NCBI GenBank assembly: GCA_023231475.1
Contig: JALJEE010003057.1
Span: 124,001 to 158,760 of the forward strand
Direction of reading: 5' to 3'
DNA length: 34,760 nucleotides
Origin: Seison nebaliae
Taxonomy: Eukaryota
Shown here: positions 1,193 through 33,717 of the stretch, one piece after another
How the letters are laid out: every line of letters starts with the position of its first letter
Numbering within the stretch: position 1 is the first letter of the stretch
Made by a program: the position numbers and the translations under genes
The notes under the pieces: model-generated
The model's input: the letters and a program-made list of their open reading frames with translations, nothing else
Databases searched by the model: none
Told to the model about the DNA's origin: nothing

Positions 1193-4100
1193 TTAACGAA
1201 ATATATTACTTCTCCATAACTGAGTGAATTTCTCGAAAGCGCTCATGTAATTATGTTGAGGAAGTTTCGTTTTTCTTACAGTTTTACATTTCGGACAACA
1301 TTCGCCAATTGCCGTTGGAAGGATTTGTTCACAATTCTCCAATTTCGGACATTGAACATCTTGACAGAAATTTTCTGGACATGAAGGACAACATGCTCCT
1401 GGTTGGTGGTATTGATCGTCATCGTCACAGTCTACTATGGGACAATTATTCAAATCGATTTCTTTACAATTATTTCTCTCACATGCTGAACAGCAATGAC
1501 CAATTTCTGGTTGTGCTAGGATTGGATTAGAACATTTGGGTTTTTCACATTTTACTTTCGAACAATTTTGTCGACATTTCGGACAACATTCACCAGGTAA
1601 ATAATATTGATTCACTTGATCGCATCTCAATATCGGACATTCGATTTGGGAACAATCGTCCTTGCACGTTTTACAACATTTATTATTCTTAAAATCAGCA
1701 GGAATTGGATTGGGACAATTTGCTATTTGACATTTAGTAAGATCACATTGCAAATCATTACAAACAGCCGTCTTATAACATCGTTTCGGTTGGCCGACAC
1801 ACATATTTTTTTCGATACATATCGTTCCGAAAGGACATCTTCTTTCCTACAAATGAGAGAAACGAATAAAAAGAGAAATTATTAAAATTAACATCACATT
1901 TCTTATAATGAGTCTTAATTTTTTTACAAGTTGCTTTCCTCCCATCCAACACACATTGGGAATCAATTGAGCATTTAAAATTCTTACATAAATCATCCAT
2001 CAAATCTGAAATGAATAATAATAATAATTTATTGTCCACTAATGAAAATATAATTAAAATAGAGACCTCTTTGACATCGATTACAACATTGAGTCCCGTA
2101 ATTCATCGGCATAAAACACCACATTGAATGACAATTGAATTGTGTTCGACAAACGATCTTACTCGTTGCTTCACATTTACATTCTTGACAATTCGATTTC
2201 TCAACAACTTCTCCAACTGCATAATGTTTCCCATTCTTCTCACAACCTAAAAAATAGTCTTACGATGTTAATAGTGGTGAAAGAATAGAACCTGCTACAC
2301 ATTCCAAACAACATTTTCCCGGTTTCATAATCGGATTATCGCAGAATGTGGGTGGACAAACCGGTGGTTGACATTGGACAGTACCAAAAAGACAAATACA
2401 AGTCAAACATTCACTTACCGCCCAAGTCTGTCCATTGATGTATGGTTTATTTTGATATTCACAATTATTCGAACAAGTTGGACAACATTCACCGGTTTGG
2501 AGAACTGGTTTGGGACATGAGATTGCTGGGCATTTTATCGAATCGCATTTAAATCCAGATACTGTACATTTACATCTCGTACATTTATTCTTCACTAATG
2601 TCTGACCGATATGATACACATCGCCTTCAAATCGACAAACATTTGCTTCCCCACATACCTTACAACATTGACCAGGTATGGAAATTATCTTTTCACAATT
2701 CAAAGGTGGACAAGGTTTGACGATACAATTAGTTTTATTTCCCTCACTACACATACAAGTTTCACACGGATTTTTGAAAAATTTCTGACCCAATTGATAA
2801 GTTCTTCCTTCGTACGTACAAACTTTTGAATAGGAAGATAATTAAGCATTAAAAATTTTCTTGAAATTCTAACCGTTCGTCGCTAGACATTGAGGACAAC
2901 ATTTACCTTTAATAGTAATCGGATTGTCACAAGTTAACGCCGGACATTTGATCGTTTCACAAAATACTTTCGCCTGTTCAGCGCAAGTACAAACGGTACA
3001 TTTATCTCTATAGAACTTTTGACCAATGGTAAATATTTTACCTTTCTCATAACATTCTTGAGATTGGAAATTATTGAGATATTGGAATTATTCGAATTAA
3101 GAAAATGAAAACCGTTTGGACAAATAGGACAACACTGTCCGGGAATAATTCTTGCATTTGCACAATTTATATAAGGACAAGTTTTTCGTTTACAATTAAA
3201 ATTACCACTTGCCAAACAAGTACAAATGGTACATGAATTAGCCGCATATTTCTCACCCATTTTATAATATTGACCATTATAAGTACAGCCCGTTGTTGGA
3301 CCTAACAGAAAATTATCAACACTTAATCATTCATAAAAATAATTAGAGGGACTACCTATTGTTGTTGTCCAACAAACTGGACAACATTCACCTGGTTTAA
3401 TGATGGGATTAAAACAACTAATTCCAGGACATGTAGTGGACGTGCAATTCATTTTATTATTTTGCATACAAACACATTGTTCGCAAGGTGATTTCTTAAG
3501 AATTGCATTCACTTCATAATGCATTCCATAATAATTGCAACCTTAAATAATCAAAAAACATTTTTAAAAGAAAACTGAAATGACGAGACGTTCAAACCCG
3601 TTTGACAAACTGGACAACATTTTCCTGGAATCTGAATAGGCATACATGACGGTAATGTTGGACAATTCATTTTTCTACATTTAATTCCATTCTCCGTACA
3701 TTCACAAATGGTACAAACATCTTGATGATAAACGAATCCCAACGGTAACGCTTTATCTCCTTTCATACAAACTGAAAGAAGAAATTAAATGAAATCTGGT
3801 AAATTTCTTCTAACTTCCTAAAGGACAAATTGGACAACATTTATCTTGTGGTTTGATTGGTTTTGGACAGTTTAATGTGGGACAGGTTGGCTCTTTGCAT
3901 TTGATGAGACCGGTTGGTAAACAGATGCATGACTTACACTTCTCCAAAGTGAAATATTGACCGATGAAATATCGGAATCCTTCATAAGTACAATATTTCG
4001 GTTTGTCGTTCGCACAAACTGGACAACATTGATTTGACAAATATTCCAATTGTGCACAACGCAATTGTGGACAGATAATCGTTCGACATGTTGGAGAGCC

Positions 4101-7100
4101 TTCGATACATTGACAGAATTCACAATTACTTCTTTGAAATGATGTTCCGTTGGGATATGTTACACTATTCTCCGTACACGAATGTTGACATGACGGACAA
4201 CAATTACCAGCCACAATATTTTGAATTTTACAAGTTAATGTGGGACATTCTGGTGTAACACATTTTAATTGACCACCTTCTCGACACGTACATTTCTCAC
4301 AAACATTTCTCATAAACACTTGACCATAATTATAAGTAATTCCATTTTCCGTACATTTTTCCTGACAAATCGGACAACAAATTCCATCGATTTTCGTTGG
4401 TTGCGAACAAGATAAAATAGGACATTGTTCCGTTCTACAATCCACTTTTCCTTCTTCACAACATCGACAAGTGGTACATTCATCAACATCGAACGTCTGT
4501 CCTAATCGATAAACTTTTCCTTCTTTGTTACATGTGATGGGACAGAATGGACAACAAAGGTCATCATTCTTCACCGGATTAAGACAAGGAGGTGTGGGAC
4601 ATTTAATTGTCTCACATTGAACTCCTTTCACATTGCATCGACACTTCTTACATGGAGTTGGATTGAAATATTCACCCAACAGATATCTCTTGCCATCTGC
4701 TTCACAATTCGATGGACAAATCGGACAACAATTTCCTTCAATTTTTTGAGGATTCGAACAATCCACCGGGGGACATGAAACTTGGACACATGACACTTTT
4801 CCATTTCTTCCACAAACACATCGACTACATGGATCACGATAAAATGTTTGTCCGAGAACATAAACAACATCTTTCTCCGGACATGCTACAAATAAAACGG
4901 AAAATAAATTAATGATAAATAAAATTATTAAATGTATTAATAAAAATTAAATTTACTTGAAGGACATTCAGGACAACATCGGCCGGCTTTCTTAATGGGA
5001 TTTTGACAGAAGCATTCCGGACATTCAACTTTTTTGCATGTTACTCTACCATCATTTTCACATACGCATTTAGTACATTCGTCTTTATGGAATATTTCAC
5101 CAGCACTATAAACTTTATCATCCACCACACAAACTATAAATGAAATTATTAAATATTTTTAATGACATGAAGAAATAACTGTTCGTGCAAACTGGACAAC
5201 ATGTTCCTGGATGAGTTATTTTATTCATACATTGCAATTGTTGACATTGGATTTGTTGACAATGAACTCCGTTTTTGGTACATTGACATTTGACACATGT
5301 ATCTCTATAAAAGAGATCGCCAACTTTATAAGTTGTTCCTTTTTCAAGACAAGCTAATAATCGAATAAATCATAAGATTATGAAATTAATTATAATGATC
5401 AAAATGAATCATTAACTATCTGAACAATGGGGACAACATTTCCCAGTAATTTTTATAGGATTCGAACATTGAACTGTTGGACAAACTTTAGTTTCACATT
5501 TCATTTGTCCAGCTTTCTGACAAACACAGGAATTACAATCATCCTTTTGTACGCTTTGTCCAACATTATATGCAGTTCCATCATAAATACAATCTAAAAA
5601 GTATTTGAACTTTACGGCAAGACGAAAATAGAGAACTTGCGGGACAAATTGGACAACATTTACCCGGTATCATTACCGGTTTTTGACATTCCAATGATGG
5701 GCATTTAGAAACGATACAAGTTACTTGACCATTCAAATTACATATGCAGGAAGTGCAAGGATCCTTTTTAAATTTCTGTCCTATTGTATAAGCGATATCT
5801 TCATATTGACAAGCTGACAAGAATGATTAATATATTATCGATAAAAGGAAATTGGAACTATTGAAACATTGAGGACAACAAATTCCGGGAATTTTCTTTG
5901 GCGTTGCACAAGTGACAGGTGGACAAATGATTTTCTGACATTTAACTTCGCTAGTTGTCAAACATTTGCATTTATTACATTCTCCTTTATAAAAGACTTG
6001 ACCGTATCGATAACTGATTCCTTCATGAGTACAGTCCATTCTACAGACAGGACAGCATTCTGCAGGTAATTTTATTGGATTAGGACAAGTGACTGGTTTG
6101 CATTTGGTTGAGAAACATTCCACTTTATTATTCACTCCACAGAAACATCGAGTACAGACATCTTTATAAAAGACCTGACCAATCGTATAAGTGATCTGAT
6201 CGACGGTACATGCTTAAGTATTTAAATGATGATGATTTATTAATTATGATAAAACGAACTTTCTGGACATTGACCACAACAGGCACCTGGTAATTTGATT
6301 TGATTCTCACAATTCAAAGTAGGACATTGTTCAGTCATACAAGTAACTTTGTTGTTCATTTGACATATGCATTTCGTACAAGCATCTCGATGAAACACTT
6401 GATTAACCGAATACGTTTTCGATCCATCCTCACAAGCTGTTCAATAACGTGCAAAATTTAATTTTAGAAACTTATTATTTATTTTATAAAACTGGATGGA
6501 CAGATTGGACAACATTGACTGGGTATATTAATTGGTTTTGTACAACTGGGTGTTTGACACGACTCCACTATACAATCGACTTTCGAGTTCGTATTGCACG
6601 TACATTTGGTGCATGGATCTCTAAAAAAGGTTTGTCCTATTGAATAAATTATTCCATTTTCATTACATCCCTTCGAACAAATCGGACAACATGTCCCAGG
6701 CAATTGAATCTTTCTCGAACAAGTGATGGGAGTACACTCCTCAGTCGTACAAACGATGTTCGAACCTTCTTCACATTTACATTTGGTGCAGGCGTCTCGA
6801 TGAAACTCTTTCCCCAGAGGAATAATTAATCCTTTCTCTTCACACTCTAATTTGATAAGGGGAAATTTAAAAGAATAAAATTATTTAAATTATTTTAATT
6901 GTTCAACTTTGATGACAAATCGGACAACATTTCCCTGGAACTTGCACAGTGCCCAAACAATTGAGTGGTGGACAAACTTCATGTTGACAATTTATATATC
7001 CCAATTCTTCACATACACATTTAGTACAATCATCTTTTTGAAATTGCTGATTAGTTTCATAAATAATTCCATTATGCTCACAAACTATTCATTCAAATGG

Positions 7101-8181
7101 AAACGGAATGAGAATAAGAATTAAAATGTAAATATTAATAATGTTAAACTTTTCTGACAAATTGGACAACATGTACCTGGTTTAACAATTGGCGATTGAC
7201 ATTTTACAGGAGGACAAGTTTTATGCGTACACGGCATAAGGCCATTTACCTCACAAGTACAAATGATACAAGGTGAATCTTGATATTTTTCTCCGATTTC
7301 GAAACTCATATTACGATATTGGCAAACTATAGAAGGAGCTGATGATAAATTAATGATAAATTTGAAATAAATTTGATTATAAAATAATCACGTTCGTTCG
7401 GACAAGTTCCACAACAACTATCCGGTTTAATTATTGGATTAGCACAAGCCAATAAGGGACATGGCTTCTTTGAACAAATTGCTCCGTTGGCAGTACAAAC
7501 ACAAATTGTACATTTGTCTTTCTTATATTGTTGCCCAACTTCATATTGTTGACCGTTGTGTTCACAAGGGAATTTTGTATCACAGGCTGGACAACAAGCC
7601 CCAACTAACATTATTGGATATTGACAAGTTAACTGAGGACATTTCGGCATTTGACAATTTATGGTGCCACTTTCACACGTACATTGTGTATTGCATTTGG
7701 ATCGACGGAATCGTTGACCATTATTGTACGTTTTCCCATTTTGTTTACAAGTTGTGTCACCACAATTGCCACGTCTTTTTATGAACAGTCGTTTATTTCG
7801 ACATCGAGCTTTTCTAAATGTACATAAATTACTGTAAGTAATACCGTTATTTGCACACATCGGATCTTCATTTTTACCACATTTTTTATTACAAACATTA
7901 TATTGGTGGTTAAATGGAATATTTTCCATATATGGCAAGTTCATAGACGACGGTAATCTTCCAAATGTTTCCATTAAGAAATTTTGGAGATGTTCTGGTG
8001 GGATTTCTGGTAATCGTTCACTTTGTGGCATTCGATTTTGTGAGACTCTATAAGTATTCTTACCCAAATCTTTCTCATTATTCAACGCCGAATCGGATAA
8101 ATAAATCGATTCTCTTCTTTCATTAAAATTACTCCACACTAAAGTGAAATGGCAGAATGATATTACATATAAGAAAATCAT
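1193..8181 (-). CDS. Secreted kielin/chordin-like cysteine-rich protein: signal peptide, Kazal domain, ~27 VWC repeats, follistatin-N-like module, 5 half-VWC repeats; 19 exons, ~2,000 aa
   Basis: The many minus-strand Cys-rich ORFs join in frame through 18 GT-AG introns of roughly 40-70 nt. Repeats follow C-x4-G-x2-Y-x2-G-x2-F-x3-C-x2-C-x-C...CP...C...G-x-CCP-x-C. The N-terminus is hydrophobic ([17 protein letters not shown]) and is followed by the Kazal motif [27 protein letters not shown]. Confidence 0.9.
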
Positions 8182-8847
8182 TATTCCAAAATGAAAGTTT
8201 TCGTTTCATCTTTCTTTTTAATATTCTTCAAAAATTTAACAATTTTGTATGACATATTTTTTATTAACATTTTTATTCAAATTCACTTTCCAAAACTATA
8301 AATTCTTTGGGACATTGTGATGAATTCTTCTATGTTCTCCGAAAATATAAGAAGACAAATGTCTACGAGATAAGTTAATTTTCAATTTACAAATTAAATA
8401 CGGATATTACTTATACTTATTAAGTACATAACTTACGTTTTTTGGATGTTTAATGATAATTTTCATTTTTGTTCATTATTTTAAAACAATTTTTAAATTA
8501 TAAAAGTGAAATTGATTTTGTGATCAATTTTGTTTTAAACCTATAATCGGTATCTTTTTTCATCTTTAATCACTTTTCTTTTGGGATTTTTCGGAAGTTT
8601 CGTTTTGACTTCAATTTAAAATTAAATAAAACTTTCATTAACGAGGTGTTGATATTATGAGCAAATGAGATTCTATAGAATAATTAATTAAAATGAAATT
8701 ATATCGTTTTTCTACTCTGAACATACAATTGGCAACATAATAAAGAATTATGGTATAAAGATCGAAAGTTAAGAAGTTGAAATTAAATGAAATACCATGT
8801 TATTTATCGAAATTTATCTAGAATGAATCCTTTCCAAATAAACTTCC

Positions 8848-10380
8848 CTACAATTCGCTATGAAAACTGGGCAAGTCATCCATTTTGCGTCGTTCTTCAA
8901 AGAATTTCTTCAACGAAGCGACACTTCTTTTCATCAGAATTTCGTTACTAGACGAGGATCTTCTAAGAAAACTTGACCTGTATTTATTCGAACTGCTTAA
9001 CGAAAGTGCTAGTTCTGACTGAATTCCATATAATCCATGTTCTTCTAAGATTTCCTGTGAAGATTGACTAAATTCTAAATTATCTATTGTATCATATTTC
9101 TTGTAGCATTCGGCCGAGTTATTATGATTTTCCTTTGGAGAGAAATTCAGGTCGCTGAAGGACGTAAAGTCATTTATGTCGTCTATCGTCACTAACGATT
9201 GTGTTTTCTTCATTTGATTTCCATCTAAATTTTTATCAACAATATTCTGCGTAATCGATTCAGTTTTTAAAGAATCGAACGACTTAGACTTCTCGATCGA
9301 AGAAACTTTTCTTTTATTTTTATAAATATAACACGCGTTTGGTAACGGAGGTTTCGGTTTACTTATTGTTCGTTTGATTTTGTTAAGAAAAGTTCCTCTT
9401 TGGTTGGATTTCGTTTGATTAAGATTACGACAAAGTTTCAATTCGGAAGAAATTCTCGAACAAATATCTTCACCTTCATCTTCCTGATCATAATGGCCGA
9501 GTTCGATGAAGGATCTGTATCTTTTTTCGAAGGATTTTAATTCAGGAATGACTCGATTGTTATCGGAAGTGTTGTCGGTTGCTGAACTATTGGCAATATA
9601 AGCACTGACATAAGGTAGTTTGTGATGTGATGAGAGAATGGCAGGCATAACGGGCAGATGTGAACCTGGTAATGTTTGTATGATGTGAGATATACGTTGT
9701 TGAATGTATGATTTAGTTTGAATTTCGGAGAAACAATTTGGAATAAGAGAATTGATCAATTGTTTCTCACGTCTCGATAATTTATCGATAACATCTCGAG
9801 CTAAAATAGAATTTAAATAATCGATCGTTTCTTCTGGTAATTCAAAATCGTTATTTTCATGAATTGGCGTATCTCTTAAATTCGTCATTTGAGAGAGGAA
9901 ATTTCCTTCGTAAAATTGAGAGAATTCGTCAGTACGGTTATGCTGATTAACATTCCAATTCGATTGATTAGAGTTATGTTTGTTTCGATTATAGAATTTT
10001 TTTTTAAATCGATTAAAATTTTTTTCGACATCTGGCGATTTATAATTCTCTTTCCAAAAGAATCCGAATACTAAAATGAGAGTGCCCATAATGACAGTGG
10101 CAATAATACCGATGAGAGGCGGTCCATATGTTAATAATTGAAAGAAGAAAATATATGTGGAAGATTTATCACGACCATGATGATCTTTTAATAGATAACT
10201 TTCGGAATGCATTGACGAAGAGGGATTGTCCAAAGCATCATCTGCCAAGATCGTGACGGAGAATGTGTAATTGGAAGGGACATCTTCGATCCCATCGTTC
10301 GTTGCCATAGCAATAGGAAAGAGGCGAAGAGTAAAGGTAAGAATCAATAAGAATATTGATGGACATACATTCATGTGCAT
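8848..10380 (-). CDS. Uncharacterised single-pass type I membrane protein (510 aa, intronless)
   Basis: Long ORF in AT-rich DNA. It has a signal-peptide-like start, one hydrophobic segment (PPLIGIIATVIMGTLILVFGFFW) followed by basic residues, and a Ser-rich tail. No family recognised. Confidence 0.8.
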   Translation of the reverse strand: MHMNVCPSIFLLILTFTLRLFPIAMATNDGIEDVPSNYTFSVTILADDALDNPSSSMHSESYLLKDHHGRDKSSTYIFFFQLLTYGPPLIGIIATVIMGTLILVFGFFWKENYKSPDVEKNFNRFKKKFYNRNKHNSNQSNWNVNQHNRTDEFSQFYEGNFLSQMTNLRDTPIHENNDFELPEETIDYLNSILARDVIDKLSRREKQLINSLIPNCFSEIQTKSYIQQRISHIIQTLPGSHLPVMPAILSSHHKLPYVSAYIANSSATDNTSDNNRVIPELKSFEKRYRSFIELGHYDQEDEGEDICSRISSELKLCRNLNQTKSNQRGTFLNKIKRTISKPKPPLPNACYIYKNKRKVSSIEKSKSFDSLKTESITQNIVDKNLDGNQMKKTQSLVTIDDINDFTSFSDLNFSPKENHNNSAECYKKYDTIDNLEFSQSSQEILEEHGLYGIQSELALSLSSSNKYRSSFLRRSSSSNEILMKRSVASLKKFFEERRKMDDLPSFHSEL

Positions 10381-11022
10381 TGCTGCTCAAATCATATTCC
10401 GAAAATAGAAAACAAGTAGGTATAACCGAAATAAACTAGCCTTACCTAATACAAAATTGGATTATGAAGAAATTAAAAATGAAAAAATTCTTTTCCAAAT
10501 TTCTACATTCTACTTACATTAACAACTGTTATTGAATCACTCAGTCACTTTAAATGTTTAAATCAACCAAAATTGAAAGAGTTAAAAAATATTTTTTTAA
10601 AAATTATTTTCATAGACACTTTTGGAATTTAGTGGAAAATTTTAATTTGGATTTTTCCCCAACAACAAGTGTCCAAGAAATCTGGCGTGTTTTATCGGAC
10701 AATCCTTCTATAAACAAATCGGAAGAGAAATATGTTTATCATTCCTTCCAATATTGTTCATATTGATTATTGAGATTGTGAAATATGTTAGGAGGAGGAT
10801 ATGGAAATGTAATCGTGAATAAATAATCATATGTCAACATCTATTTCTGCCAATGAGATATTTCTACTAGCTAAATTGAGAACAGTGAGTAGAGTTTATT
10901 GTTTGTTAATGACAAATTGATTGATAACAATCCCTCGTTTTAATGAAGAGGCAAATATAAGTGAGATAATATGAATCGAAGGAAAAAAAAATCGAACTCA
11001 CAAAATAAGAAAGTCCAAAAAA

Positions 11023-11439
11023 ATGGAAAAATTTTCAGTAATAATTTTATTGATTTGTATTATCATTTCAAGAATATCAGTGAGCGAAGCGGTGAAATGT
11101 TTCGCTTGTGACAGTTCAAATGATCCAAAATGTTCTCGTGAAGAAAATCAAGTAGTTGGAATAGCCGATGATATAGAATGTACTGGATATTGTATAGTTA
11201 GAATTCTATAAGAATATTATTATTATCTAATTTTTCAGTATATGTCAAATCCCACTCATAATTCGCTGGATTTTCCACATATTCATCGAAGTTGTTTGGC
11301 TATTTGTCCGGCGGATTCGGCAGGGTATAAAGTGAAATGTTGTAAATCGAATTACTGCAACGGAAGTGGATCATTAAGAGCGTATTCTCTAATTGGAGTG
11401 ATGATTTTATTAATAAAATATTTGATAATGAAATTATAA
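11023..11439 (+). CDS. Ly6/uPAR three-finger protein, probably GPI-anchored (quiver/sleepless-like); 2 exons
   Basis: A 42-nt intron (GTTAGA...TTTCAG) joins two ORFs. The product has a signal peptide, 10 Cys from VKCFAC to CCKSNYCN, then GSG and a hydrophobic C-terminal tail. Confidence 0.88.
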
Positions 11440-11486
11440 TAGGGGGAATATGTGGTGGAAATGATGAATTTTTTTTTCTTTAAACT

Positions 11487-12803
11487 TTATCGGAAGAGAA
11501 TGAAAAGTATGAGAAATATTAAGAGAATTCCAAATATTTTTACTGTCAACCATCTACTGGATGAAATGGATTTGAAATATTTCATCAATTCTCCATACGC
11601 TCCTGTTATGTTTACGTTAATCTCATCTACATTTTCATCGATTCTTTAAAAAAAATTTTATTTTCATCTCAATTTAATAAATTTCACCTTAACACTATCT
11701 CTTCTTGCTGATGGACCATATGTGCCAATTGTTGGAAGATCGTTCCTAAATCAACGATCGTTTTCTCAATGTTCTCCATTGCATTTGCTCGTTCCGTCAG
11801 GAAAGCTCCTTCATTCTTCACTAATAATTGTTGTTGTTGTTGTTGTTGTTGGGAATGTTGTTCTGATTCCATAGCGATTTCGGTAGCCGTCAAATTAGTA
11901 GAACTTGAACCGCCACTAAATAAATATTGAAGAGAAATATTTGATTGGGAAAAAAAAAGAACTCTAATATTGCTCCACTGTATGGATCGACAATTGGAGC
12001 ATTTAATCGTTGTCTTAATTCACTGGATGATGTTCCTTCATTTCCATTAGATTGTGTTGTTGTTGTTGTTGTTGGTCCTCGATATAATGCCGAACCTTAA
12101 ATGAATTATTAATAAAATTTTTTTTAAATGAAAAAAAATTATTTAAATTATGAAAAATAACCACTACTGTTGAGCAGGAGAGGATTAGTCGCTACCTTTT
12201 TTTCATTTTGATTTTTTTGGATGTTATTTGAACTTTGAGAATTAGAGACCTTTAACGGAACATTCGAAGAGAATTGATCTTTTCTATTTTTTTGTTCTTT
12301 CAATTTTTCAGTACTTTCTTCCAATAATCCTTTAAATTCATTTGACATCGTCGCTAATTGAGACTAAAGAAAGATTATGAAAATTTGATGGAAAACGTTA
12401 CTTGAAGATTGAGAACGATGGTATTGTTATGAGATTGAATGTTCTTCGAAAGATTATTGTGATTTCGAGATTCAGATTTCATATATTCCTGCAATTGACC
12501 CAATCGTCCGTTCAAACCATTGACATCGCTTTTTATGATTAACATCAATTGTTGAATCTCTTGAGATTTGTCGTTGAAAAGTGAATGTTGTCGAGCGATG
12601 ATTGACAATTTCTCCAATTTCGAATAAGTTCTTGATAATTCTGAACCGATTCCTTTCGATAATTGATTGAATCTTTTACACTTATCAATCAACATATCTT
12701 TATTCGATAATTTCTTTTTGTCATTCTCCCCATAAGAATTCTTCGAACGAAACGTATTCACAATCGAAGTGAATTCACTTAAACGATTCTGAGAATCATA
12801 CAT
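11487..12803 (-). CDS. STX5: Syntaxin-5 (Golgi Qa-SNARE); 5 exons
   Basis: N-peptide NRLSEF; Habc motif KLEKLSIIARQHSLFNDKSQEIQQL; SNARE motif ERANAMENIEKTIVDLGTIFQQLAHMVHQQEEIVLRIDENV; tail anchor ELMKYFKSISSSRWLTVKIFGILLIFLILFILFR*. Confidence 0.95.
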
Positions 12804-13157: not shown

Positions 13158-16100
13158 TTAGTCTTTTCCGTCCGCATTTTTTCGATCTTCTTCGATTTTC
13201 TTCAAATTTTCGTAGCGCGCTTTAGCTTCTCTCAATGGTTGAATGATATTAATTTCAATTTGAGGAAATAACTGAAAAAGTTTTAAGTTGAATTTTTAAA
13301 TTAGAAGTGAGAAATAATTTAAAATAAACTTTTCCCAAAGTCTCAAACATTGGTAATAAAACAAATTGAATAAATCCAATTTGTGCGTCCGGTTTTGTCA
13401 CTTTATCCCGATCCATAAATGGTGCTACAGGTAAACCTAATTCTTTCTCGCGATCAGACTGATTAGCATTGTTAGAATTTGATTGAAGATATTTAGAAGA
13501 AAACTTGTTGAAAATATTCAGTTAGAAGACAATCCACCCACGGATCCGACACTTCCATTGGACGTACCTCGTTGCTGATATCGCAACATTTAATGAGAAT
13601 TAATTTCAACTGAACGGGAACAAGTGAGGAGGATAGTCGAAAGAAATCGAAACGTTCTGCAAATGTTTCTCATCCTTGAAATTGAATGTTTCATTTATGT
13701 TACCCATAAAACTGTCCAATAAAGTCTTATGTGCTGCCATATCGGTTGCCAGGATCAAATCGACCAATTGCTAAATGAGAAGAAAATGAATCGATATCGA
13801 ATAGATAATGAACTTTTCGCACATAATGAAAACTCTCGTTTGATAATGAGGAGAAAATGTTGCATTCAGGAATACTTAATATTTGGAAAGCAACAGCACA
13901 ATGATGATTCTCTAAAGGAGATTTATCATTATAACGAATTGCAAGTTCGGTACGAGCATTGATTTGGTAACTAAAAGAAAAGAAAAATTATAACAATATA
14001 GAATAAATATTAACGCGTTGTTAAATCCAGGATGATCGAGATCATGACATATTGCCGCAGTCAACAAAATAGCTTGATCCAAAGTTGAAAGAACATCGAT
14101 TAAACTATAAACATAAAATTTGAATAAAATGAAATTAAATTAAATGAAAAGTTGAAAATTTTTAACTTTAATTGATGAATCATTCCGTACATCATTTGAG
14201 CAACACAAAAACAATGTTGAAAATTATGAAATGGATTTAATCGATAATTCGTTTGAACACATAACTGAAAGGAGATTAGAAAGTTTAATTGAAATATTTT
14301 ATGATATAAATTATTGGAACCAAAAATTTTCTCAAAGTTATTGGAGATACGAGTAATTCATCAATAATCTTCAATTCCTGAAACATATGTTCCAATAAGG
14401 ACAACATCTGAAATTTAAAGGAAGAAATATTTTTAGTTTAATCAATCCTATAGTTTAGAACCTCGTTCGGTTCCCAATGCCAAATGTTGAATGTTGGTTG
14501 TTTTAAGTAGTCAATTGTCTCTTGAGTTAATTGATACTTATCATAAAGTGGCATGTCCTTCTTAAACAATTCCCATCTTCTTTTCGGATCTGTCTCACTG
14601 GAAATATAATGCAGGAAATGAATTAGATGAATGATAATGTGAATAGATGATAATGAGAATAATATGATATGAATGATGATAAAGTCAAACGTTTCACTTG
14701 ATCTTCTCGATCGGTCACTTCCAGTTTTTGGGAGTTGCATCGCATTGTTAGTTTGCATTACTTCTTTGAGTTTCTTCAATTCCGTTCGATGGTTCTCCAA
14801 TTCAACTAGTTTATTTGACTCACCTAAAGATGAGTGATAGAATTTTATTTATTTTTGATCGACAATTAGTGTTTGTCGATAAGGGAGAAAGAGAATCGTC
14901 TATCTAATCTTTTAGTTGCATCGTCCTTCGATGATAATACTGTGCACTTCCACCTTATTCAAATATTTATACATTTCTTCCCCCTTACAATTCCTCCTCC
15001 CAAATGCACATACGTATTAAGGAATGATTAAAATGATAATATAATAAAAATTATTTTGACACCTATCCTTGTTCGATCGGTCAGCATAAACTTCATATTG
15101 GCAGACGAACATTATTTTTCGACCAACATACGTCTTACATGGAGATAAGCAATAACAAGTCTATCTAATTCATGTTCCTTCCCGTCAATGACTGGAACAA
15201 AGTAACAGTTGTAGTTTACTTCTAATTGTAGGACGTGTAAATTCAATTAATACAAGGCTCCTCCTACTTATCATCAACCATTCCCAATTATCATCATCCC
15301 ACAATTCTTCATCATTTTATTTATTCGGTGTCTGTTTGTGGCGATAATTTGGAGAAGACTAACGGTCTAGACGTTTCTCCAATTTCCGTATTTTTTCTTC
15401 TAATTCAAATTTTATATCGTTCACTCGTAACACTCTGGTTGGAAGTTTTTCTTATTAATGAATTAGAAGGAAGAAGACGAAACTTTTCGAATTGTGCAGA
15501 TAAATGAAAGAAGACGCTCTGTAATTTTGATTCGATGGCAGCTATGAAATAGGAAGAATTATTTGAAAGTTTTAGAATGATTTGATTAATACAATAAAAA
15601 TGAACCTTGTTCGAATGCTTCGTTAAATATTTCCAAAGAATAAGGTTCTCTGCTAACGGAAGACATGAGATACAATGTCATTTAAATTGGAGGATGGTAA
15701 AAAATGAGATTTAGTGATCTATTTATATTGGACATAATAACTGATGATATCATCAGATGACGTCATTGGGTGGATGGAGAGCTCTTTAACAAAAATTGTG
15801 CATGAATAGCAAGATGAGAGTGATACATTCAATTCCTGCAATTCTTTAGAGTTACCAATTCCTTCACATCTTCTTCTTAACAATAATAATCGATTTTTCT
15901 TCAGGGGAAATTTTTCAGGAAAGGTAATTGGAAAAAGTTCTTTTTATCAAAATTGGAATATATTCGAAGAAACGAGAGGAAATATTCGATAAGCGAACGT
16001 AGTTGAAAAGGAAATTTAAAAACACAATAAAACCGAAATTGAAGGAGGTAGAAGGAGAATGGAAGAAGAAGAAGAATAACATTCGATGAATTGATATTAT

Positions 16101-18211: not shown

Positions 18212-18232
18212 CAACAACAACAACAACAACAA
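18212..18232. repeat. (CAA)7 microsatellite
   Basis: Read directly, in the PDE9/WDR60 intergenic region. Confidence 0.85.
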
Positions 18233-19827: not shown

Positions 19828-19841
19828 ATTGTCATGACGAC
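19828..19841 (+). promoter_or_regulatory. Candidate RFX X-box upstream of the ciliary gene WDR60
   Basis: ATTGTCATGACGAC matches RYYNYYWWRRNRAC at all 14 positions and ends about 60 nt before the ATG at 19901. Confidence 0.65.
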
Positions 19842-19900
19842 AAACTTCGCATATTTCATTTTAACCTTGAATTCTTGGAAATTCTTCTATTATATCTATT

Positions 19901-22900
19901 ATGGACGATAATTTATCAAAAAAATCAAAGAAAACCAAAAAAGTTTTACTCCCAATTTAATATTATTAAATCCGATGTTGAATTATAGACAAAAGATCAT
20001 CATGATGAGGCAGAAAAGATATCAAAGAAGAGTAAAAAAGATGTTCGGAATTTCAATTTTTAACTATTTCCTATTATTGTAGAAGAAAATATTGGACTAT
20101 GACGATGAAGAAAAAGTATCTATAAAGAAGAAGAAGAAGAAAGAAGATCATGATCATAATGAAGAGATCGTAAAGAAGAAGAAGAAAAAGAAAGATAAGG
20201 ATAAAGATAAAGACGAAGATAATGTAGATGAGGAAAAATCTCATAAGAAGAAGAAGAAGAAAGATAGAACTATTGAATCAACAACAATTGCTACAGTCGA
20301 TGAAGCTGGTGAGAAGAAAAAGAAGAAAAAGAAGAAAGTCCATGATGATGATGAAACGGATCATTCTCGTGCATCTTCAGCTGTTTCCAAAAAATCTAAA
20401 GCGAAATCAGCAAAACATACAAAAAAAGAAGATATCGTACTTGTGGAACATGAAGCTCAAATCGAACATACTGGTTATTCCAGTGAAGAATTTGTTACAT
20501 TATATTCCTTAGAGAAAATTTTTTAAATATTTCCAATCAAAAACCATTTAGGAACCGATACCAGAAGAGATACGTGAATTTGATGAAGTTATTTAAAAAA
20601 TTTCTAATTTAATAATTTGTGTTGTTCTATTTCTATATTTTATTTCGTTAGTCAACTCTTAGTGATTTGACTGTGTCGGAAGATGATGATGATCAACCGA
20701 AAAGAGCAGTAATAACAGCACCAATGATCAGGAATGATATTAGAAAACCGAAAACTGCTAAACCAATTAAAGAAGAACCGAAACAACATGAAAAGAAAAA
20801 TACATATCGATCGAAACCGGATAAAACTTTATTTTTCGAAAGTACTGGATTCGCCAATGCTCAACCGTATGAAGTGAAAAGTGAAATAAAACGACGCTAT
20901 GTCGATTTGTTAGATAAAGGAATCGATTTCGAATTATCGACCAAAGTGAATATTATCAACATTCACGAATCTCAAGATTATGATTCAATAATGAAAAATC
21001 ATGGTTTAGGAGAAACCATACGGAATGTTACACTTTCGATTAATTGAAAATAAACAATGTTCAATTGTCCAGGCATCTATCCAAACTGAATCTCACGAAC
21101 AGACGACACAAACCGACGAAATTGAAACGAGAAATATTTGGGTCCAATTACAATCGTCAGCAAATCAAAAAGATTTCGGATGTTTTCATTTTAAAAATTA
21201 AATTAATAAATTAAAATTAAATTTGTTTCAGTTGAAGGGGAAGATGAGAAGGAGAATGTATTCGAAGCATTAGATCCCACTAAATTGAACAATTTCTTGA
21301 AAAAGTCTTTAGATTTAGTCCAACAAATTTTGGACGAAGAACATATGGAGAAAGAACTGCAGAAAGGTAACCATACGTCAAAAGAGTACAATTTATCAAA
21401 AGATTATTTGAATCATAAAATTATTTTATTTGAAATTCTCGACGATAATCCAACAGAAATATTGATGTTGGCAGAAAATGAGAATGATCAAGTGATGTTG
21501 ATTTGGAGTATGTATAACATGTCTGAACCGACCAAGTTCTCATTTTCTTTTCTTTTTTTCTTTTATTTTCAATTTGAAGTATCCTCTCTTGTGGATATCG
21601 AGGTAATACCTGCAATTGTATCACATCTGCAGTGGGACAACATTCTCAACTGATTTTCGGAGGATTCGTTAGCATTTCATTATTTTGTGTTATTGTTTAA
21701 AGTTGTTAGGAGGATGGAAGTATATCCATGTGGAATTTTAAAGATTCTGTAATAAATTTAAAAAATAGAAAATTTCGACCACCATCATATCAGACAGGTT
21801 AAATCATTCTTAATTTTTTAAATCATTTTTATCATTTCTATAAATTTTTTTATTCTAAACATTTATAGCATTCGTTACCAGTGAAGAAAATACTGAAGCG
21901 ATAATGATAATGGAATGTGTATTAAAAAGTGGAACATCAATAGCTCAAGCACAACATGAATTGATTGCCGTTGATTTTGGAGCAACCATTCATATTTGGG
22001 TTTGTCAAATTTTTCCATTTCCCAATTTACAAACATAGTTTTGGTAGAGTATTGTGGATGTGAAAGGAAATTTAAAAAGTGGTTCTATGAATGATTTGGG
22101 AATATTTCCTGGTTCCACTTTACGACTTGTTCCAACCATCAAATATCCATTAAGACATCAAATCCAGTTAGCTGGTTATATATCATTATACTAATTGAAG
22201 AATTGTAGATCTCCATATAAGGAATTTCAAGCTTTCTCTATTACTCATCCTTGTGGTAGTGATCGACATATTTATATTAGTAGCGATCAGGGATGTATCT
22301 ATCACATTGATCGAAATGGCACGGATGAATTCCCACAAATTTATGAAATAAATGATAACAGTTTAACTTTCTTTAACAATTTAACAAATTTGATCGTTAT
22401 TTTCAATAGAGAGTTTTCTTGAGATTACATCAATAAAGTTCAATCCACATATTGACCGATTATTTGTGGTTGGTTGTCGAAATGGAAATTTATATTTATT
22501 CTCAACACTCAAAAGTTTCTCTTATTCACATATTGGATGAAGTTGAAATGTTTTTCGATTGAAGGGAATCCAATTGCGACAATTTTCCAAAAGACGACAG
22601 AAAGTATCGATGAATTGATGTGGGATAATGTTGAATGTGGAACACTTTATGCAATGACATCCAATGGTCGTCTATTAAGTTGGAGAATGAACGAAAAAGA
22701 AGGAATCATTCTAATCAATGAATCGATAATCGATTGTGAATTGGCGTTAGAATTTGAGATAATTCATAAAAAAAATTTTATTTGCTTAATAGGAAAATGA
22801 AGAAGAATTTAATAGTGGTTATTGAGAGTTCGAATAAAATCAGATTGAATCGATATTGTGCAAAGACGAATATTTCACAGAAAGATTTTGAAACTTTTAT

Positions 22901-22925: not shown

Positions 22926-22977
22926 TTATGAATAAAAAATTGAATTTAATGATTGAATGTATGAGAATGCTAACATA

Positions 22978-23163
22978 TTATGCATATGAGACTGAGTCGG
23001 CTCTTGTACAGATGAGATAGAGAGCAAATAGGAATCCAGGAATCCATCCGATTAGCGTCAATAAGATACTCACTGCTACATAAATATTACATTCATCCAT
23101 TAAAATATAGACTGCCAATGGCGGGAGAAGAAATGCAAGAATGAAGAGTATCAATTTGTTCAT
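22978..23163 (-). CDS. Pmp3/UPF0057 family small proteolipid membrane protein (61 aa)
   Basis: Two hydrophobic helices with the family motifs ILAFLLPPLAVY and ILLTLIGWIPGFLFALY. Confidence 0.92.
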   Translation of the reverse strand: MNKLILFILAFLLPPLAVYILMDECNIYVAVSILLTLIGWIPGFLFALYLICTRADSVSYA

Positions 23164-23289
23164 GTTGTCGTTTATCTGAAGATTTCTAAGGATAAAAGAT
23201 AATTAAAATGATTTTGAAAATAAATATTTTTTCTTTATGTTCGATTTGATCAATCATCGCATATTTGTGAAACGACAAAATCGACGGAA

Positions 23290-25283: not shown

Positions 25284-26383
25284 TTAAAAGAAGTTTCTAC
25301 CATTTCCATGATTATTTCCGTTACCGTTATTCATGGACATACCATTGTTTGACATTGATTCAATTTGTAATGAATCCGAATTCATTCCATTGCCATTATT
25401 ACCACCCAAATAATGAGAAGGATTACGACGATTTGATGGCCAGAAAGCTGATGGCATGGAATGATCAACTGATGGCATATCGTACGCATGAGGCATATTT
25501 GGTGGATAATCTGATGGATTCATATTCGGAATATTCGGATAATCATACATGTTAGAATTATGCATTCGATTCCTATAAAGAAAATATTTAGATGGTTTTC
25601 TTGATGGAAATTCAAACATGAAATTTGTGTCATTGGTATGATTGAGATTGCCATGTAACATCGGATATGATTCGTTGATTCCATAAATTCCATTCATGGT
25701 TGAATTATCACCGCTGGGATTATGGGATGTAGTATGAGGATTCAAATTGAGAGAACCAAAATCCTGAGCTAGATTTGGTTTCGGTCGTCCTGAAATTATT
25801 TGAAATTAAAATATTTTGGAAAATTTCAATTTAATAAAATTTAACGATGAGGTAAATTTGAGTCACCCCAACAAGGACCTGATGAAAAGTTGTCATTCGC
25901 ATGATCATCAGGCATAACATCGTTGTAATAAACGGGATTGACACGATCGTTGTACATCGTCTAAAGATGGAATGATTAACGATGGAAAATAATCATATTA
26001 ATTTAACATTTCTCGCCCAATCATCATTTTCCATATGTCGATATTGAGTTGACATTGGCGTTTCTTCACCATATGCAAAATTCATATTGTTCGATATATC
26101 ACCATTTCCACCATTCATACCACCGTTTGGAGAATAACCGCCACCATCTTTTGACAGATAAGAACCTAATCGACTTTTATTAAATCTGTTAACTGGTCGT
26201 CGATTATTATGAGTTTTCATTGACGGATCATACATTGACGGTTCCACCGGTTTATTTCTGGGATACATTACCGACGGGTTTCCATGGGAACCATATGGAT
26301 GAGATGAATTGTGTGCTTGTGGTGGTATAACATTATGAGGGAGACGTCCCATATATGAATTATTGGGATTGTTACTAGTGCTC

Positions 26384-26415
<32 letters not shown>

Positions 26416-28047
26416 GTCAATGATTGGTGGTGGATATCGAACATCTGCACCTAATGCATTCATTTGATTCATGGAATTGAAAGCGCCATATGATGGACGA
26501 TGTGTTGTTGATCTCATTGCATTCTGTTCATATAAAGTAGATGTTGCTGATGGCGTATTATAAACGTTGCTATTAGTAATCGTATTACCACTACTGCCAT
26601 TGATGGTTGATTGGGAGGAGGTGTTATTAGCATCACCTTCCAAATGACATAAATTTACTAATTGTGTCTGCAATTCTTTCATTCGACTACAAGCATTTGT
26701 ATATTCTTTCCCATCATTAGCTGATGAATAATTACTTTTCATCTTCTTATAAGCACGACGTGCTTTTTGTGAATTACCAATTAATTCACTAATGATCGTT
26801 ATACCATCCGCTCTCAATGGGAGATAGAGAACTTTGTCTGTTAGAACTCCATCCTCCAAATCTAAATGGATATATCTCAATATCTCTTGTTCACTCGCTT
26901 CACCCATTTTCGAATATTGATTATAATGTTTCGTTATCTCTTTCACATTCTTCATCTTATGATCTTCCGGCAACTAAAAGAATTATTTGAATAATTAATA
27001 TGAAATTATTTCGAAAAATGTTGACAAGACAAATTGTTTTTTTTGGACAAAGAAAAACATTCAGAAGCTTCCAACAAAGATGAAAATGATAAACTGTCAC
27101 TAAACACAGGAAAACGAGTGTAAATTGTTACGAAGTGAAAGGAAAAGCGATTTAATAAAAAGAATACCGATTCTTTGGAATCATCAAATGGAAAAGTTTC
27201 CAGATTAAGAGAAATATTCGAATTATCATTATCCTCTGCCTAACGTATTCCCAATTGTACAAATTGAAAATGATGAGAAAATGAATGAGAAAAAAATACT
27301 GACAATTTTCCAAGAATGTTCCAAATTGGAAGTTAACTAAAAAATTATCAAATTGAAAAAAAGAGAAAAATTAAATGGAATAACATTTAATAAATCCATT
27401 CGACGATTGTCTTTCATATCCATATTGTCCATATAACTGTTAGTGAGAGGTTGGAAGTGTTTAGGAGAGATGGAGGAAGTCAGTTCGATTTTACTTGTCG
27501 TTGTATCGATCAACGATTGATCGGTGGGTAATTGAAATAAATTTCTCGAATTATTATTCTCATATGTTGAAATATTTTTTCGCATATTATTCGAGAATGT
27601 GGAGTCGATTCCTTTGACGTCGCCGATCAAGTCCACACTCTCAATTCGATTATCTTTGTTCTTATTCCCATAATTGGTCAACAACGATGTTGGTGGCGTT
27701 TCATCAATCGGATGGATGTTGGAAGTAGTTGAATTGACATTGGTACTTTTCGGTTCTTGAAGGAAACGATTAAGATTCCATCGTTTCATTTTCCCATTCT
27801 GAACATTCGGATCACCCCAAATCGAAGTACCATTATCATGATTATTGTTGATTTGAGAGATGGTAGTCACAATCTCCTCCTCACAATCCCAACCAGAAAC
27901 GTTAACTGTGAAATCTGGCATCAATTCTCCTAAAGTCGGATTCTCGGATGATGATCTGGAACGGCTTTTTCCTCTCGAATCACGTTGTTGACGTTCGCTA
28001 CGTGATCGCGAATAACCGGCTACCGGCAATGCTACTGCTGTTGCCAT
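25284..28047 (-). CDS. Divergent GW182/TNRC6 (Gawky)-like miRNA effector, ~770-785 aa, 6-7 exons
   Basis: Argonaute-hook-like motif SGWD-x17-DNGTSIWGDP-x9-W and an M-domain-like segment (ILRYIHLDLEDGVLTDKVLYLPLRADGITIISELI...MKELQTQL), embedded in N/P/M/Y-rich low-complexity sequence. The three long ORFs join through short introns. The small internal exons near 27170-27335 are less certain. Confidence 0.65.
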
Positions 28048-29784: not shown

Positions 29785-32391
29785 ATGGAAAAAAGATGTC
29801 TTTTATTCAACATTGTTTCAGTATTCATTTTGTTGAGTGATGTGGCAATCGGTCAATCGATTCTCACATTCGAACCTGACCAAAAATCGAAATATGTCGT
29901 CGAATATTCGGACGGACATTTCCAAGTGACATCAAGAAAATCGTTCATTTTAAACGTTTTCATCACCGATTATAATGGAAGTGATTCCATACCGATGATC
30001 TTGACGAAAAGAAAACAGATATTATCAAACCGATCTTGTAACACTAATGGCGATGGAATCGATGGTAATTTGAAAAGAATCGGAAAAAATAAATATCAAA
30101 CCGATTTATATTTTTATGATATTGGCGATTATTATTTTTGTTTGGATGTCTCGTCAGATGGAGAATATCGTTACGAAAATAATGAAATGTTTTTGAGTGT
30201 GGTAAAAGAGAAGAAGAGATTAATGCCAATTTGGATTCAAATAATTTTACTTTGTCTACTCCTTTGTCTCTCAGCGTTGTTCAGTGGATTAAATTTGGGA
30301 TTGATGTCTTTGGACAATACGGAATTGCAAATTTTGAAAGATGTTGGAACTGATGCAGAAAGGAAATATGCAAAGAAAATTATTCCTTTAAGACAACGTG
30401 GCAATTTTCTTTTATGTTCCATTTTGTTAGGGAACGTTCTAGTCAATTCAACTCTCACCATATTATTAGATGATATTTCATCAGGTTTATATGCAGTTAT
30501 TGCATCAACTGCATGTATCGTTATTTTTGGAGAGATCATTCCACAAGCTGTTTGTTCACGATATGGATTGATGATTGGAGCGAAGACACTTGTTATCATG
30601 AAATTTTTCATGTTAGTCACCGCCGTCATTTCTTATCCCATTTCTCGATTACTCGATGTTATTTTGGGAGAAGAAATTGGATGTGTTTATTCGAGAGAGA
30701 AATTACGATGTCTTTTACGATACACCAAAGATCGAATGGATGTTAAAGATCGAGAATTAGAGATAATGCAAGGTGCATTGGAATTGACGAAGAAAACGGT
30801 CGGTTCCATCATGAAATCCATCGAAACGGTTTATATGTTAGAATGGCAAGATCGATTGGATTTCAGTTGTATCACCGAAATCATTAAACAAGGATATACT
30901 CGTGTTCCAATTTTCAGAGATGATCGAAAAAATATTGTCAGTTTGTTAAATGTAAAAGATTTGGCATTGATCGATCCTGAAGATCGAATAACTGTAGAGA
31001 ATTATTGTAATTATTATAAACATGATTTCGAACGTTGTGATATCGACAAACCATTAGATTCATTATTAGATGATTTTAGAAAGGGAGGATGTCATATGTG
31101 TATTGTAACGAAAGTGTTCAATGAAGATCCAGATCGTGATCCGTTTATGGAAGTGGTCGGTTTAGTAACATTGGAAGATGTGATTGAATCGATATTTCAT
31201 TTAGATATATTTGATGAATATGATCAGAATGAGAAAGAAGGGAAATTATTAGCATTTACTGGTCGACAGAATTCGGCGAAAACTGGAAATATTCATGCGT
31301 GGTGGAAAGTGGATGATCTCAATCAATCACATATTCCATCATCTTTAGCATATGCGGCGATGATGTTCCTCTCTCAACAAATAGAATTATTCAAACCTGA
31401 TATCATTCTTCAACAAATGTTACTTCGTCTTATTCAATTTTGTTTCATTGATTTCCGACCACGAGATCTAATCGGACGTTGTCTTGATGATGCGACGACA
31501 GATAAAGCAACAATCGATCCAATCGCTGGCGATGAGAAGACTTTAGAAGAGGAGAAACATTACATTTATAAGAATGGAGTATCAGCTGATTATTTCGTAT
31601 TGATATTAGCTGGATCAGCAGAAATTGAAACGAATGGAATGAAATTTCAAGTAACTCCATTCCAATATTTTGGAGAGGAAGCATTGACACATGTCTGTGA
31701 TGATGAGAGTATTTCAAACGATATATTTTCAATTGATGTAACAAAAAAACAATTTTTACCAACTTTCACTATTTATGGAAAGACTTCACATTTACAATAT
31801 ATTCGAATTCATAAACAACAATATTTTAATGCTTTACATTTCTCTCATTTGAGACGTGGTGCACCACGAGAAGATGGTGATACAGACATCAATTTCACGA
31901 ACAACAACAACAACAACAACAACAATAATAATAATAATAATAATATTAATCATATGAATTATGATATGATAATGAAACCATCAACTCAAATGAAAGAGAA
32001 TGATAATGTTTCAATAAAATCCTTACAGAATATTAGCAAGACGAATAGTTATTGGAGGAAGTTGCAACCTCCATTCCATCCAATCATTCGTCAACAATTT
32101 CAACGTTCCGACAAAATCCATAAACAAAAATCACCAGATAGTTCGACGATATCACCGAAAAAAATAACTGACGATATTATATTGCCAGGACGACGTTCGA
32201 GAAAAGGCAGTCAATTGACAATTGAACGTTCGGATAATTCAACGCCATTACCACCACTCATCACGCCATCCAAAAGAGAAAAATTGAGATTAAATGATAA
32301 CAAATCTCCTTTGACGACCGTTGCATCAGCAACCGCGTTAAATGTGTCTGATGAAGCAAAAGAGAGATTACTTTCTGATAGAACAGAATAA
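29785..32391 (+). CDS. CNNM: CNNM family metal (Mg2+) transporter (CNNM2/unextended-like), intronless, 868 aa
   Basis: Signal peptide; DUF21 motifs LSALFSGLNLGLMSLD, LLCSILLGNVLVN and IVIFGEIIPQAVCSRYGL; CBS pair (GYTRVPIF, GLVTLEDVIESI); cyclic-nucleotide-binding homology region (ADYFVLILAG...FQYFG). Confidence 0.96.
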   Translation: MEKRCLLFNIVSVFILLSDVAIGQSILTFEPDQKSKYVVEYSDGHFQVTSRKSFILNVFITDYNGSDSIPMILTKRKQILSNRSCNTNGDGIDGNLKRIGKNKYQTDLYFYDIGDYYFCLDVSSDGEYRYENNEMFLSVVKEKKRLMPIWIQIILLCLLLCLSALFSGLNLGLMSLDNTELQILKDVGTDAERKYAKKIIPLRQRGNFLLCSILLGNVLVNSTLTILLDDISSGLYAVIASTACIVIFGEIIPQAVCSRYGLMIGAKTLVIMKFFMLVTAVISYPISRLLDVILGEEIGCVYSREKLRCLLRYTKDRMDVKDRELEIMQGALELTKKTVGSIMKSIETVYMLEWQDRLDFSCITEIIKQGYTRVPIFRDDRKNIVSLLNVKDLALIDPEDRITVENYCNYYKHDFERCDIDKPLDSLLDDFRKGGCHMCIVTKVFNEDPDRDPFMEVVGLVTLEDVIESIFHLDIFDEYDQNEKEGKLLAFTGRQNSAKTGNIHAWWKVDDLNQSHIPSSLAYAAMMFLSQQIELFKPDIILQQMLLRLIQFCFIDFRPRDLIGRCLDDATTDKATIDPIAGDEKTLEEEKHYIYKNGVSADYFVLILAGSAEIETNGMKFQVTPFQYFGEEALTHVCDDESISNDIFSIDVTKKQFLPTFTIYGKTSHLQYIRIHKQQYFNALHFSHLRRGAPREDGDTDINFTNNNNNNNNNNNNNNNINHMNYDMIMKPSTQMKENDNVSIKSLQNISKTNSYWRKLQPPFHPIIRQQFQRSDKIHKQKSPDSSTISPKKITDDIILPGRRSRKGSQLTIERSDNSTPLPPLITPSKREKLRLNDNKSPLTTVASATALNVSDEAKERLLSDRTE
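31900..31944 (+). repeat. Coding (AAC)n(AAT)n microsatellite giving poly-Asn in CNNM
   Basis: Read directly. Similar coding tracts occur in STX5 (poly-Gln, poly-Thr) and the GW182-like gene (poly-Asn). Confidence 0.9.
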
Positions 32392-32908: not shown

Positions 32909-33717
32909 ATGAGTTTTAATACAGCACTCCATCCCCAATCTAATGGTATTATTCTATTCAATGGTGAGGTCATCATCATTTATTATGATGGAGTAAAATT
33001 CAATTTGAAGGGCAATACAGCTATACCAAATCGGACAGTCAATGGGCGTGTATTCTTGACAACACATCGAGTTCATCTTCATTCAAATTTCTTTTATATT
33101 TTCAAATTTATATTCATCAGGTCATTTTCACATCGAAGAAGAAAGATGCATTAAAATCTTTCTCGATGCCTTTCCATGTGATGAGGAATCTGGGATTGGA
33201 ACAGCCAGCATTTGGCGCAAATTATATCAAAGGAGATGTTATAGCTGAACCGAATAGTGGATGGACAGGACAAGCCAAATTCACCATGTCATTCTACAAC
33301 GGGGGAGCTATCGAATTTGGGAAAGCGATGTTAGAAGCGGGAAGACTACAATCTGCATATCGAAACACAATACCAACATCTTATAATTCTCAATATGATA
33401 ATCCATATCAACCGCCTTCTAATCAATTTACCGGAAGCAGACAAGATTATCGATGGGCTCCTTATGACAAGTTTCCAGATGCGCCTCCAGGTTCCTTCAT
33501 TTCAATTTTTCCTATTAAATTAAATTCCTATTCATTTTAAGATTATGATATTTATATGGCTCAAAATCCTCCACCATATCCCGGCGTCAATGGTATGGTT
33601 CCACAACAAAATGCTTATCAGAATGCTTCTGCTCCTCATGACATATATGTACCGGAGACACAACCACCTGCTTATAACTCACTGTCTCAACCAGTTGAAG
33701 AAAAGAAGAAAAATTAA
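32909..33717 (+). CDS. WBP2: WW domain-binding protein 2 (GRAM domain plus PPxY motifs); 3 exons
   Basis: GRVFLTTHRVIF, SFSMPF, LEQPAFGANYIKG and FYNGGAIEFGKAML, followed by PPPYPG and PPAY. Introns are GTTCAT...CAG and GTTCCT...AAG. Confidence 0.93.

Follow-up and report, generated by a model that had tools for sequence, protein, structure and literature searches.

Departures from the usual 5′ splice-site (donor) code are known from several lineages, and the sources cited here describe different ways in which a spliceosome lives with them. Entamoeba, an intron-poor protist, uses near-invariant GUUUGU(U) donors (88–90% GUUUGU, with U at +4) together with a co-evolved U1 carrying ACAAAC (bioRxiv 10.1101/2022.06.08.495308). 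In the Saccharomycotina, donor position +4 switched from A to U across the lineage; the switch is linked to METTL16 and SNRNP27K, and both U1 and U6 were shown to be unchanged (PMC10581693). The tunicate Fritillaria borealis, an animal, has changed most of its splice sites and breaks the GT/AG rule on a genome scale; its U1 5′ end is strictly preserved, and it employs m6A changes and U2AF paralogues (PMC13326754). In mammals, introns that start with GUU can be recognised in shifted or bulged U1 registers (PMC9311317). Here we describe the donors of a 34,760-nucleotide stretch of the genome of Seison nebaliae, a minute marine animal allied to the rotifers within Syndermata (Seisonidea; contig JALJEE010003057.1, positions 124,001 to 158,760, forward strand; hereafter the window), wherein 49 of 55 catalogued introns begin with GTT.

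Seison shares with Entamoeba a majority of U at +3 in a GT–AG system, but it is an intron-dense animal whose positions +4 to +6 are degenerate, whose strongest donor is GTTAGT and whose U1 change is a prediction. Like Fritillaria, it is an animal with a U2-type spliceosome facing a large change in splice sites; unlike Fritillaria, it keeps GT–AG and changes +3. The Saccharomycotina likewise changed one donor position to U, at +4 instead of +3 and in fungi. Finally, shifted-register donors are rare in mammals, whereas in Seison GTT is the majority and the G lies at +5.

The catalogue covers six genes and has a median intron length of 50 nucleotides (nt); 50 introns measure 38–71 nt and the five longest 93–961 nt. 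The donor triplets are GTT (49), GTA (3), GTG (2) and GTC (1). GTT opens 14 of the 18 introns of a Kazal and multi-VWC-repeat gene (1193–8205, minus strand; open frame with Pfam VWC and Kazal matches), the single 42-nt intron (11197–11238, GTTAGA) of a Ly6/three-finger-like gene spliced by hand into an open frame (11023–11439, plus strand), two of four introns in Syntaxin-5 (STX5; 11487–12803, minus strand), all 15 in PDE9 (13158–17907, minus strand), all 15 in the dynein-2 intermediate chain gene WDR60 (19901–22891, plus strand; 40–71 nt) and both in a hand-spliced, open WBP2-like gene with a Pfam GRAM domain (32909–33717, plus strand; introns 33071–33120, GTTCAT, and 33491–33541, GTTCCT). 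With the repetitive VWC gene left out, the fraction is 35/37. None of the six spliced frames contains an internal stop. The Pfam three-finger match of the Ly6-like gene is sub-threshold only, and its name is carried over from the original prediction.

Few features of animal donors are as conserved as the purine at +3. Only five of the 55 donors have one, so the GTRAGT consensus is not fitted, and none of the catalogued introns starts with GTAAG or GTGAG, just as the original prediction had held. That prediction had put GTT at 48 of 54 introns; the recount reproduces its six exception hexamers and differs in WDR60, where all introns are indeed GTT and the database protein P0241 requires 15 of them rather than 14. 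All 55 introns run from GT to AG, an agreement partly imposed by the GT/GC–AG rule of our aligner. The U12-type donor consensus, RTATCCTT, is matched by none of the 55 donors. The U12-type motifs ATATCC and CCTTAAC are given in PMC3033335, in whose accessible text no GTT or GUU statement was found.

As the junctions are predicted, the way in which they were placed matters. A purpose-written spliced protein-to-DNA aligner charged one fixed cost for every donor (GT or GC) and every AG acceptor, and was thus blind to +3. With database proteins it reproduces PDE9 (456 residues, 12 introns), WDR60 (746 residues, 15 introns) and STX5 (373 residues, four introns) letter for letter; the respective proteins are P0122 (SNEBB_005626), P0241 and P0391 (SNEBB_005625). 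The first STX5 exon and a 50-residue PDE9 exon (13814–13963, minus strand) are 100% identical to their database entries. Because database models could carry a gene finder's own bias, PDE9 was realigned with a profile free of Seison sequences. This returned 15 introns, all GTT, three of them upstream of the database start. The margin over the next-best donor was 22.8–135.2 for the eight introns of the catalytic region, 9.3–15.0 for six upstream introns and 3.0 for donor 14690, which competes with GTGAAA at 14697, the choice of an earlier profile. The alignment score was 1341 both with free donors and with GTA and GTG forbidden, and fell to 721 with GTT forbidden and to 675 when only GTA and GTG were allowed. 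For the VWC gene, a profile built from eight intron-free repeats of its own located 15 introns in the linkers (margins 8.6–83.5), 13 of them GTT. In all, 31 introns were placed donor-blind and without Seison annotation (27 GTT), 18 come from database gene models (all GTT) and six from hand splicing (four GTT).

The exceptions themselves are of uneven quality. In the VWC gene (minus strand), the donors GTGATT (7391), GTAAAT (4956), GTAGTC (3355) and GTCTCT (2066) depart from GTT; the third is ambiguous, as the aligner favours GTTGGA at 3373 by 13.8 score units, and the last competes with GTGGAC at 2039, both being non-GTT. In STX5 (minus strand), GTTATT (12161) and GTTCTT (11962) stand beside GTAACG (12401) and GTGAAA (11687), and the latter two are also backed by the non-Seison protein P0392, with margins of 30 and 15. 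For WDR60, the junctions depend on the database model, as P0241 is the only close relative found and an independent homologue check is limited to the alignment with human WDR60 (E 6.6e-14).

The possibility that the GTT excess is an artefact of misplaced junctions, or a local peculiarity of a window atypical of the genome, draws on the 24 of 55 introns that come from database models or hand splicing and on the use of predicted junctions in one window. We regard it as very improbable. The donor-blind margins in the PDE9 catalytic domain are large, and an alignment made with no splice-site rule at all returned the eight introns of that region with identical lengths and with positions shifted by a few bases at most. 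Moreover, the same aligner and profile return GTA or GTG in other organisms: a metagenome scan for PDE9 gave 80 loci, of which six were kept as genomic comparators, the other 74 being transcript-like or belonging to other PDE families whose 'introns' are alignment artefacts. At loci L063, L071, L078 and L027 (34–41% G+C), all nine donors called with a margin of at least 10 are GTA or GTG, a count that leaves out L072 (a duplicate of L071) and four calls with margins below 10 (one GTT, at 4.5, and three GTA). A quick tree identified no comparator locus as rotifer.

A purely local effect is also hard to square with the agreement of seven unrelated genes on both strands, the seventh being an unnamed gene on the minus strand whose two GTTAAA introns (26007–25961, 47 nt, and 25845–25790, 56 nt), placed by joining frames, lie outside the 55. 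The first is the sole in-frame donor; for the second, three longer alternatives (GTC, GTT and GTG) also keep the frame. The remaining junctions of this gene are ambiguous and were left uncounted. Since the bias is found in seven unrelated genes on both strands, its extension to the whole genome is plausible. Annotation-free motif counts in the window give a weak signal (GTAAG 29 against 34.5 expected; GTTAG 42 against 28.2).

The next question is whether composition could produce the excess. The original prediction had argued that a high A+T content should raise A and T alike. Its conclusion that composition fails to explain the T at +3 stands, but its premise is too simple, as the short introns are 49.5% T and 32.6% A, with 13% C and 5% G. 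T follows a non-donor GT at 27% of exonic, 37% of long-intron and 42% of intergenic sites (37–42% on the antisense strand), but at 28 of 44 sites (64%) within short introns, or 13 of 27 (48%) once the last 15 bases are removed. Because short introns are this rich in T, the relevant background is higher than had been assumed, yet it is still exceeded: Fisher p values for 49/55 range from 2e-20 to 0.0026 across backgrounds, short introns being the harshest, and for the annotation-independent 27/31 they are at most 0.021. Within short introns, internal GTA is itself rare: it accounts for 3 of 44 GT sites there and for 25 of 101 in long introns.

These figures bear on the view that +3 has merely lost its constraint and drifted to T in T-rich introns. 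The composition of short introns and the weakness of the other donor positions are what such drift would leave behind. However, 89% GTT exceeds every background, T at +4 reaches just 27%, and the five long introns are all GTT, though T follows only 37% of their internal GTs. We consider drift a distinctly improbable account, and the preference for U at +3 is itself very probably real and selected.

The age of the introns can be judged from PDE9. Four of its eight catalytic-region introns, with donors 13813 GTTCAT, 13653 GTTTCG, 13504 GTTTTC and 13329 GTTTAT (13272–13813, minus strand), share their profile position and phase 0 with GTA introns of the comparators, namely at positions 356, 429 and 472 of L063 and 394 of L071. 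As position and phase are common to the GTA introns of other organisms, these four are likely to be ancestral introns whose donors were recoded rather than new insertions. This speaks against a recent origin of the GTT introns from a mobile element that generates introns and carries GTT at its end, an idea that the uniform first three bases and narrow length range might otherwise invite. Further, the position tables show no common sequence past +3, although no all-against-all intron search was made. An origin of this kind would be extremely surprising.

Four runs (X1, X2, X4 and X6) gave no splice joints over positions 14761–21181 and have no bearing on expression; X1 was judged probably DNA and X6 aligned nothing over this interval. 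Over the PDE9 exons, X2 and X4 contain diverged contigs of low depth, consistent with a second genome. In these, donor 16613 is unchanged from +1 to +7, where the alignment ends, and all four differences are exonic; donors 17838 and 15363 each have one listed difference, both exonic; and for donor 17538 the listed differences, at +4 and −3, are two of six. Donor conservation in the diverged genome thus amounts to one clean case and three partial ones. Four non-coding blocks are also kept in the diverged contigs, in the long PDE9 introns and upstream of the gene (14949–15136, 16230–16348, 18008–18086 and 18377–18474), and could possibly be regulatory elements or alternative exons. Separately, X1, X2 and X4 each contain a main-depth DNA contig that joins 15637 and 17509 with four other letters between; this is not a splice junction; a structural variant or an accidental match (80% likeness) may account for it.

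The original prediction had described +4 to +6 and the last exon base as nearly unconstrained, which is only partly right. G at +5 is enriched, being present in 16 of 55 donors (5/5 long and 11/50 short introns) against a background of 5% G, and T is scarcer at −1 (5/55) than in exons generally (29%; p=0.0004). At +4 the counts are A 23, C 15, T 15 and G 2, and C is found at +3 only once, against 13% C in short introns. The near-invariant GUUUGU hexamer of Entamoeba is not matched, as T occupies +4 in 15/55 and G +5 in 16/55 donors, with a single GTTTGT. Positions +8 to +10 are 62–67% T, against 49.5% in short introns overall. The exon end is mostly A (28/55 at −3, 33/55 at −2 and 28/55 at −1), and A at −1 is the commonest base (p=0.014), which also follows from A-ending codon usage. 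The five longest introns, all in PDE9 (within 14598–17838, minus strand), have donors 17838 GTTAGT, 17538 GTTCGT, 16613 GTTAGT, 15363 GTTAGT and 14690 GTTTGA; G stands at +5 in all five and at −1 in none, with C at −1 in three. GTTAGT is thus the strongest donor, in the normal register. An anticorrelation between the exon-side signal and G at +5 was not significant (p 0.13–0.17). At the other end of the intron, AAG acceptors number nine of 55, and five candidate branch-point motifs upstream of the AG were not enriched over shuffles (p 0.16–0.41).

Taken together, we favour a U2-type spliceosome of the ordinary kind whose preference at +3 has shifted to U, most likely through an A in place of U at position 6 of U1; we give this explanation a probability of about 0.48. 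The bias itself is a real feature; the mechanism is inferred. The canonical U1 end reads AUAC-psi-psi-ACCUG (PMC9311317), and because position 5 lies opposite donor +4 (PMC10581693), position 6 should lie opposite +3. The predicted U1 5′ end would then read ...ACUAAC..., complementary to GUUAGU. An A partner at +3 is favoured over the G of the U6 ACAGA box because C at +3 is rare, and the normal register is favoured because G is found at +5 (16/49 GTT donors) and not at +6 (3/49). The unaltered donor 16613 of the diverged contigs also speaks for this explanation. Short introns would be found mainly by their length (38–71 nt), low G content and 3′ end, and the cut would be marked by GUU together with an exon end rich in purines; in long introns, pairing at +4 to +6, to U1 and then to the U6 ACAGA box, would come on top of this.

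The shifted or bulged register with an unchanged U1 would instead match U1 A7 to +3 U and U10 to −1 A. In its favour, registers of this type are known from mammals (PMC9311317), −1 is most often A, and the register separates donors from decoys better than normal canonical pairing (area under the curve, AUC, 0.70 against 0.64). Against this, A at −1 is also expected from codon usage, the long-intron donors follow GTTNGW with C at −1 in three of five, and the signature G at +6 is at background in Seison while +5 G is enriched. According to Roca and Krainer, shifted-register mammalian donors are said to carry G at +6. This explanation appears improbable to us.

A weightier rival, possible although doubtful in our view, accepts the +3 U as real and leaves U1 unchanged, the preference being set by proteins (U1-C, LUC7, TIA-1, PRP8 or SNRNP27K), by snRNA modifications, or by a wobble between the G of U6 ACAGA and U at +3. 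The yeasts and Fritillaria provide precedents of uncompensated change (PMC10581693, PMC13326754), ACAGA is able to pair with +2 to +6 of GUUUGU (bioRxiv 10.1101/2022.06.08.495308), the T excess at +8 to +10 may be a TIA-1-type signal (PMC9311317), and overall U1 pairing is weak. The U6 version fares less well, in that C, the best partner for the ACAGA G, occupies +3 in just 1/55 donors, A exceeds T at +4 (23 against 15), and a pure U6 model separates donors from decoys with an AUC of only 0.67. Further, Entamoeba, a +3-U lineage with a described U1, has a compensated one (bioRxiv 10.1101/2022.06.08.495308).

Several observations nevertheless weigh against a retuned U1. The model with A at position 6 reaches an AUC of 0.78, barely above the 0.75 of GTT alone, and contains the +3 T by construction. 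Even with this A, U1 pairing averages 5.1 of 9 positions. G at −1, which U1 C9 should favour, occurs in 14/55 donors and is not above the exon level (p=0.17), and among K, Q and E codons at phase-0 donors only one of eight ends in G. Six donors are not GTT, two of which, in STX5, are well supported. Changes without compensation are also common, as in the Saccharomycotina and Fritillaria. Finally, in a leave-one-out test of 50 short introns among 1089 candidate pairs, trained on our own catalogue, length alone gave 9 correct calls, composition raised this to 31, the 3′ end to 39, the +3 base to 42 and the full donor to 43; the +3 base therefore adds three of 50 calls beyond length, composition and 3′ end.

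Other features of the window deserve mention. Its G+C content is ~31%, and 31.9% is given for one assembly of Seison nebaliae, a species with two nuclear lineages (PMC8351084). The database model of PDE9 begins at 15681, likely inside intron 3; with three further exons upstream, all conserved, the protein reaches ~519 residues (15650–17907, minus strand). Intron 3 has a tandem acceptor, TAGCAG (15653 or 15650). A canonical-looking GTAAGC in PDE9 exon 3 (16646–16651, minus strand), 38 nt before donor 16613 GTTAGT, is unused in the best alignment. No Rfam match to snRNA genes was found in the window at E≤0.5. The window opens with the 3′ part of SMU1 (1–1074, plus strand; human SMU1 E 1.8e-105), with no intron in the stretch. 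SMU1 and RED aid spliceosome activation on very short introns, and the presence of SMU1 presumably fits a short-intron genome. The unnamed seventh gene (25284–28046, minus strand) is multi-exon, rich in N, P and M, and without Pfam or PDB match; its GTSIWGDP stretch is reminiscent of the Argonaute hook of GW182/TNRC6. An 868-residue intronless CNNM transporter (29785–32391, plus strand), whose nearest Seison database match is a 59% paralogue, and a 512-codon open frame without Pfam match (8848–10386, minus strand) adjoin genes with an intron about every 150 bases. Just past the WDR60 stop, on the opposite strand, lies a frame for a Pmp3-family small membrane protein (22978–23202, minus strand).

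A search of open-access PMC and bioRxiv literature returned no report of a donor consensus for Seison or any rotifer, which subscription papers and supplements may hold, nor of majority-GTT donors in an animal. The accessible text of a bdelloid tubulin paper gives 'GGT' as a shared feature of the 5′ splice site and is silent on +3 (PMC3464624), and that of a review states that there is no evidence of spliceosome reduction in animals (PMC10158995). The extent of novelty hinges on whether other rotifers or acanthocephalans share the bias. For gene prediction, donor models trained on other animals would mis-score Seison genes.

For the biology of the animal, there is an even chance that its donor code has been rewritten in the midst of an intron-rich genome, with either the U1 5′ end changed or most U1 pairing abandoned, thousands of ancestral introns then being defined by no more than GUU, length and low G content. 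If true, this would make Seison the first animal in which the donor-pairing region of U1 has co-evolved or been bypassed; the compensated U1 cases cited here come from amoebae, and in Fritillaria, the animal example, U1 stayed as it was. With public assemblies, two described lineages and sequenced relatives among bdelloids, monogononts and acanthocephalans, the order of events in Seison is open to purely computational tests. The finding would thereby bear on the question of how so central a recognition code is altered with thousands of introns relying on it.

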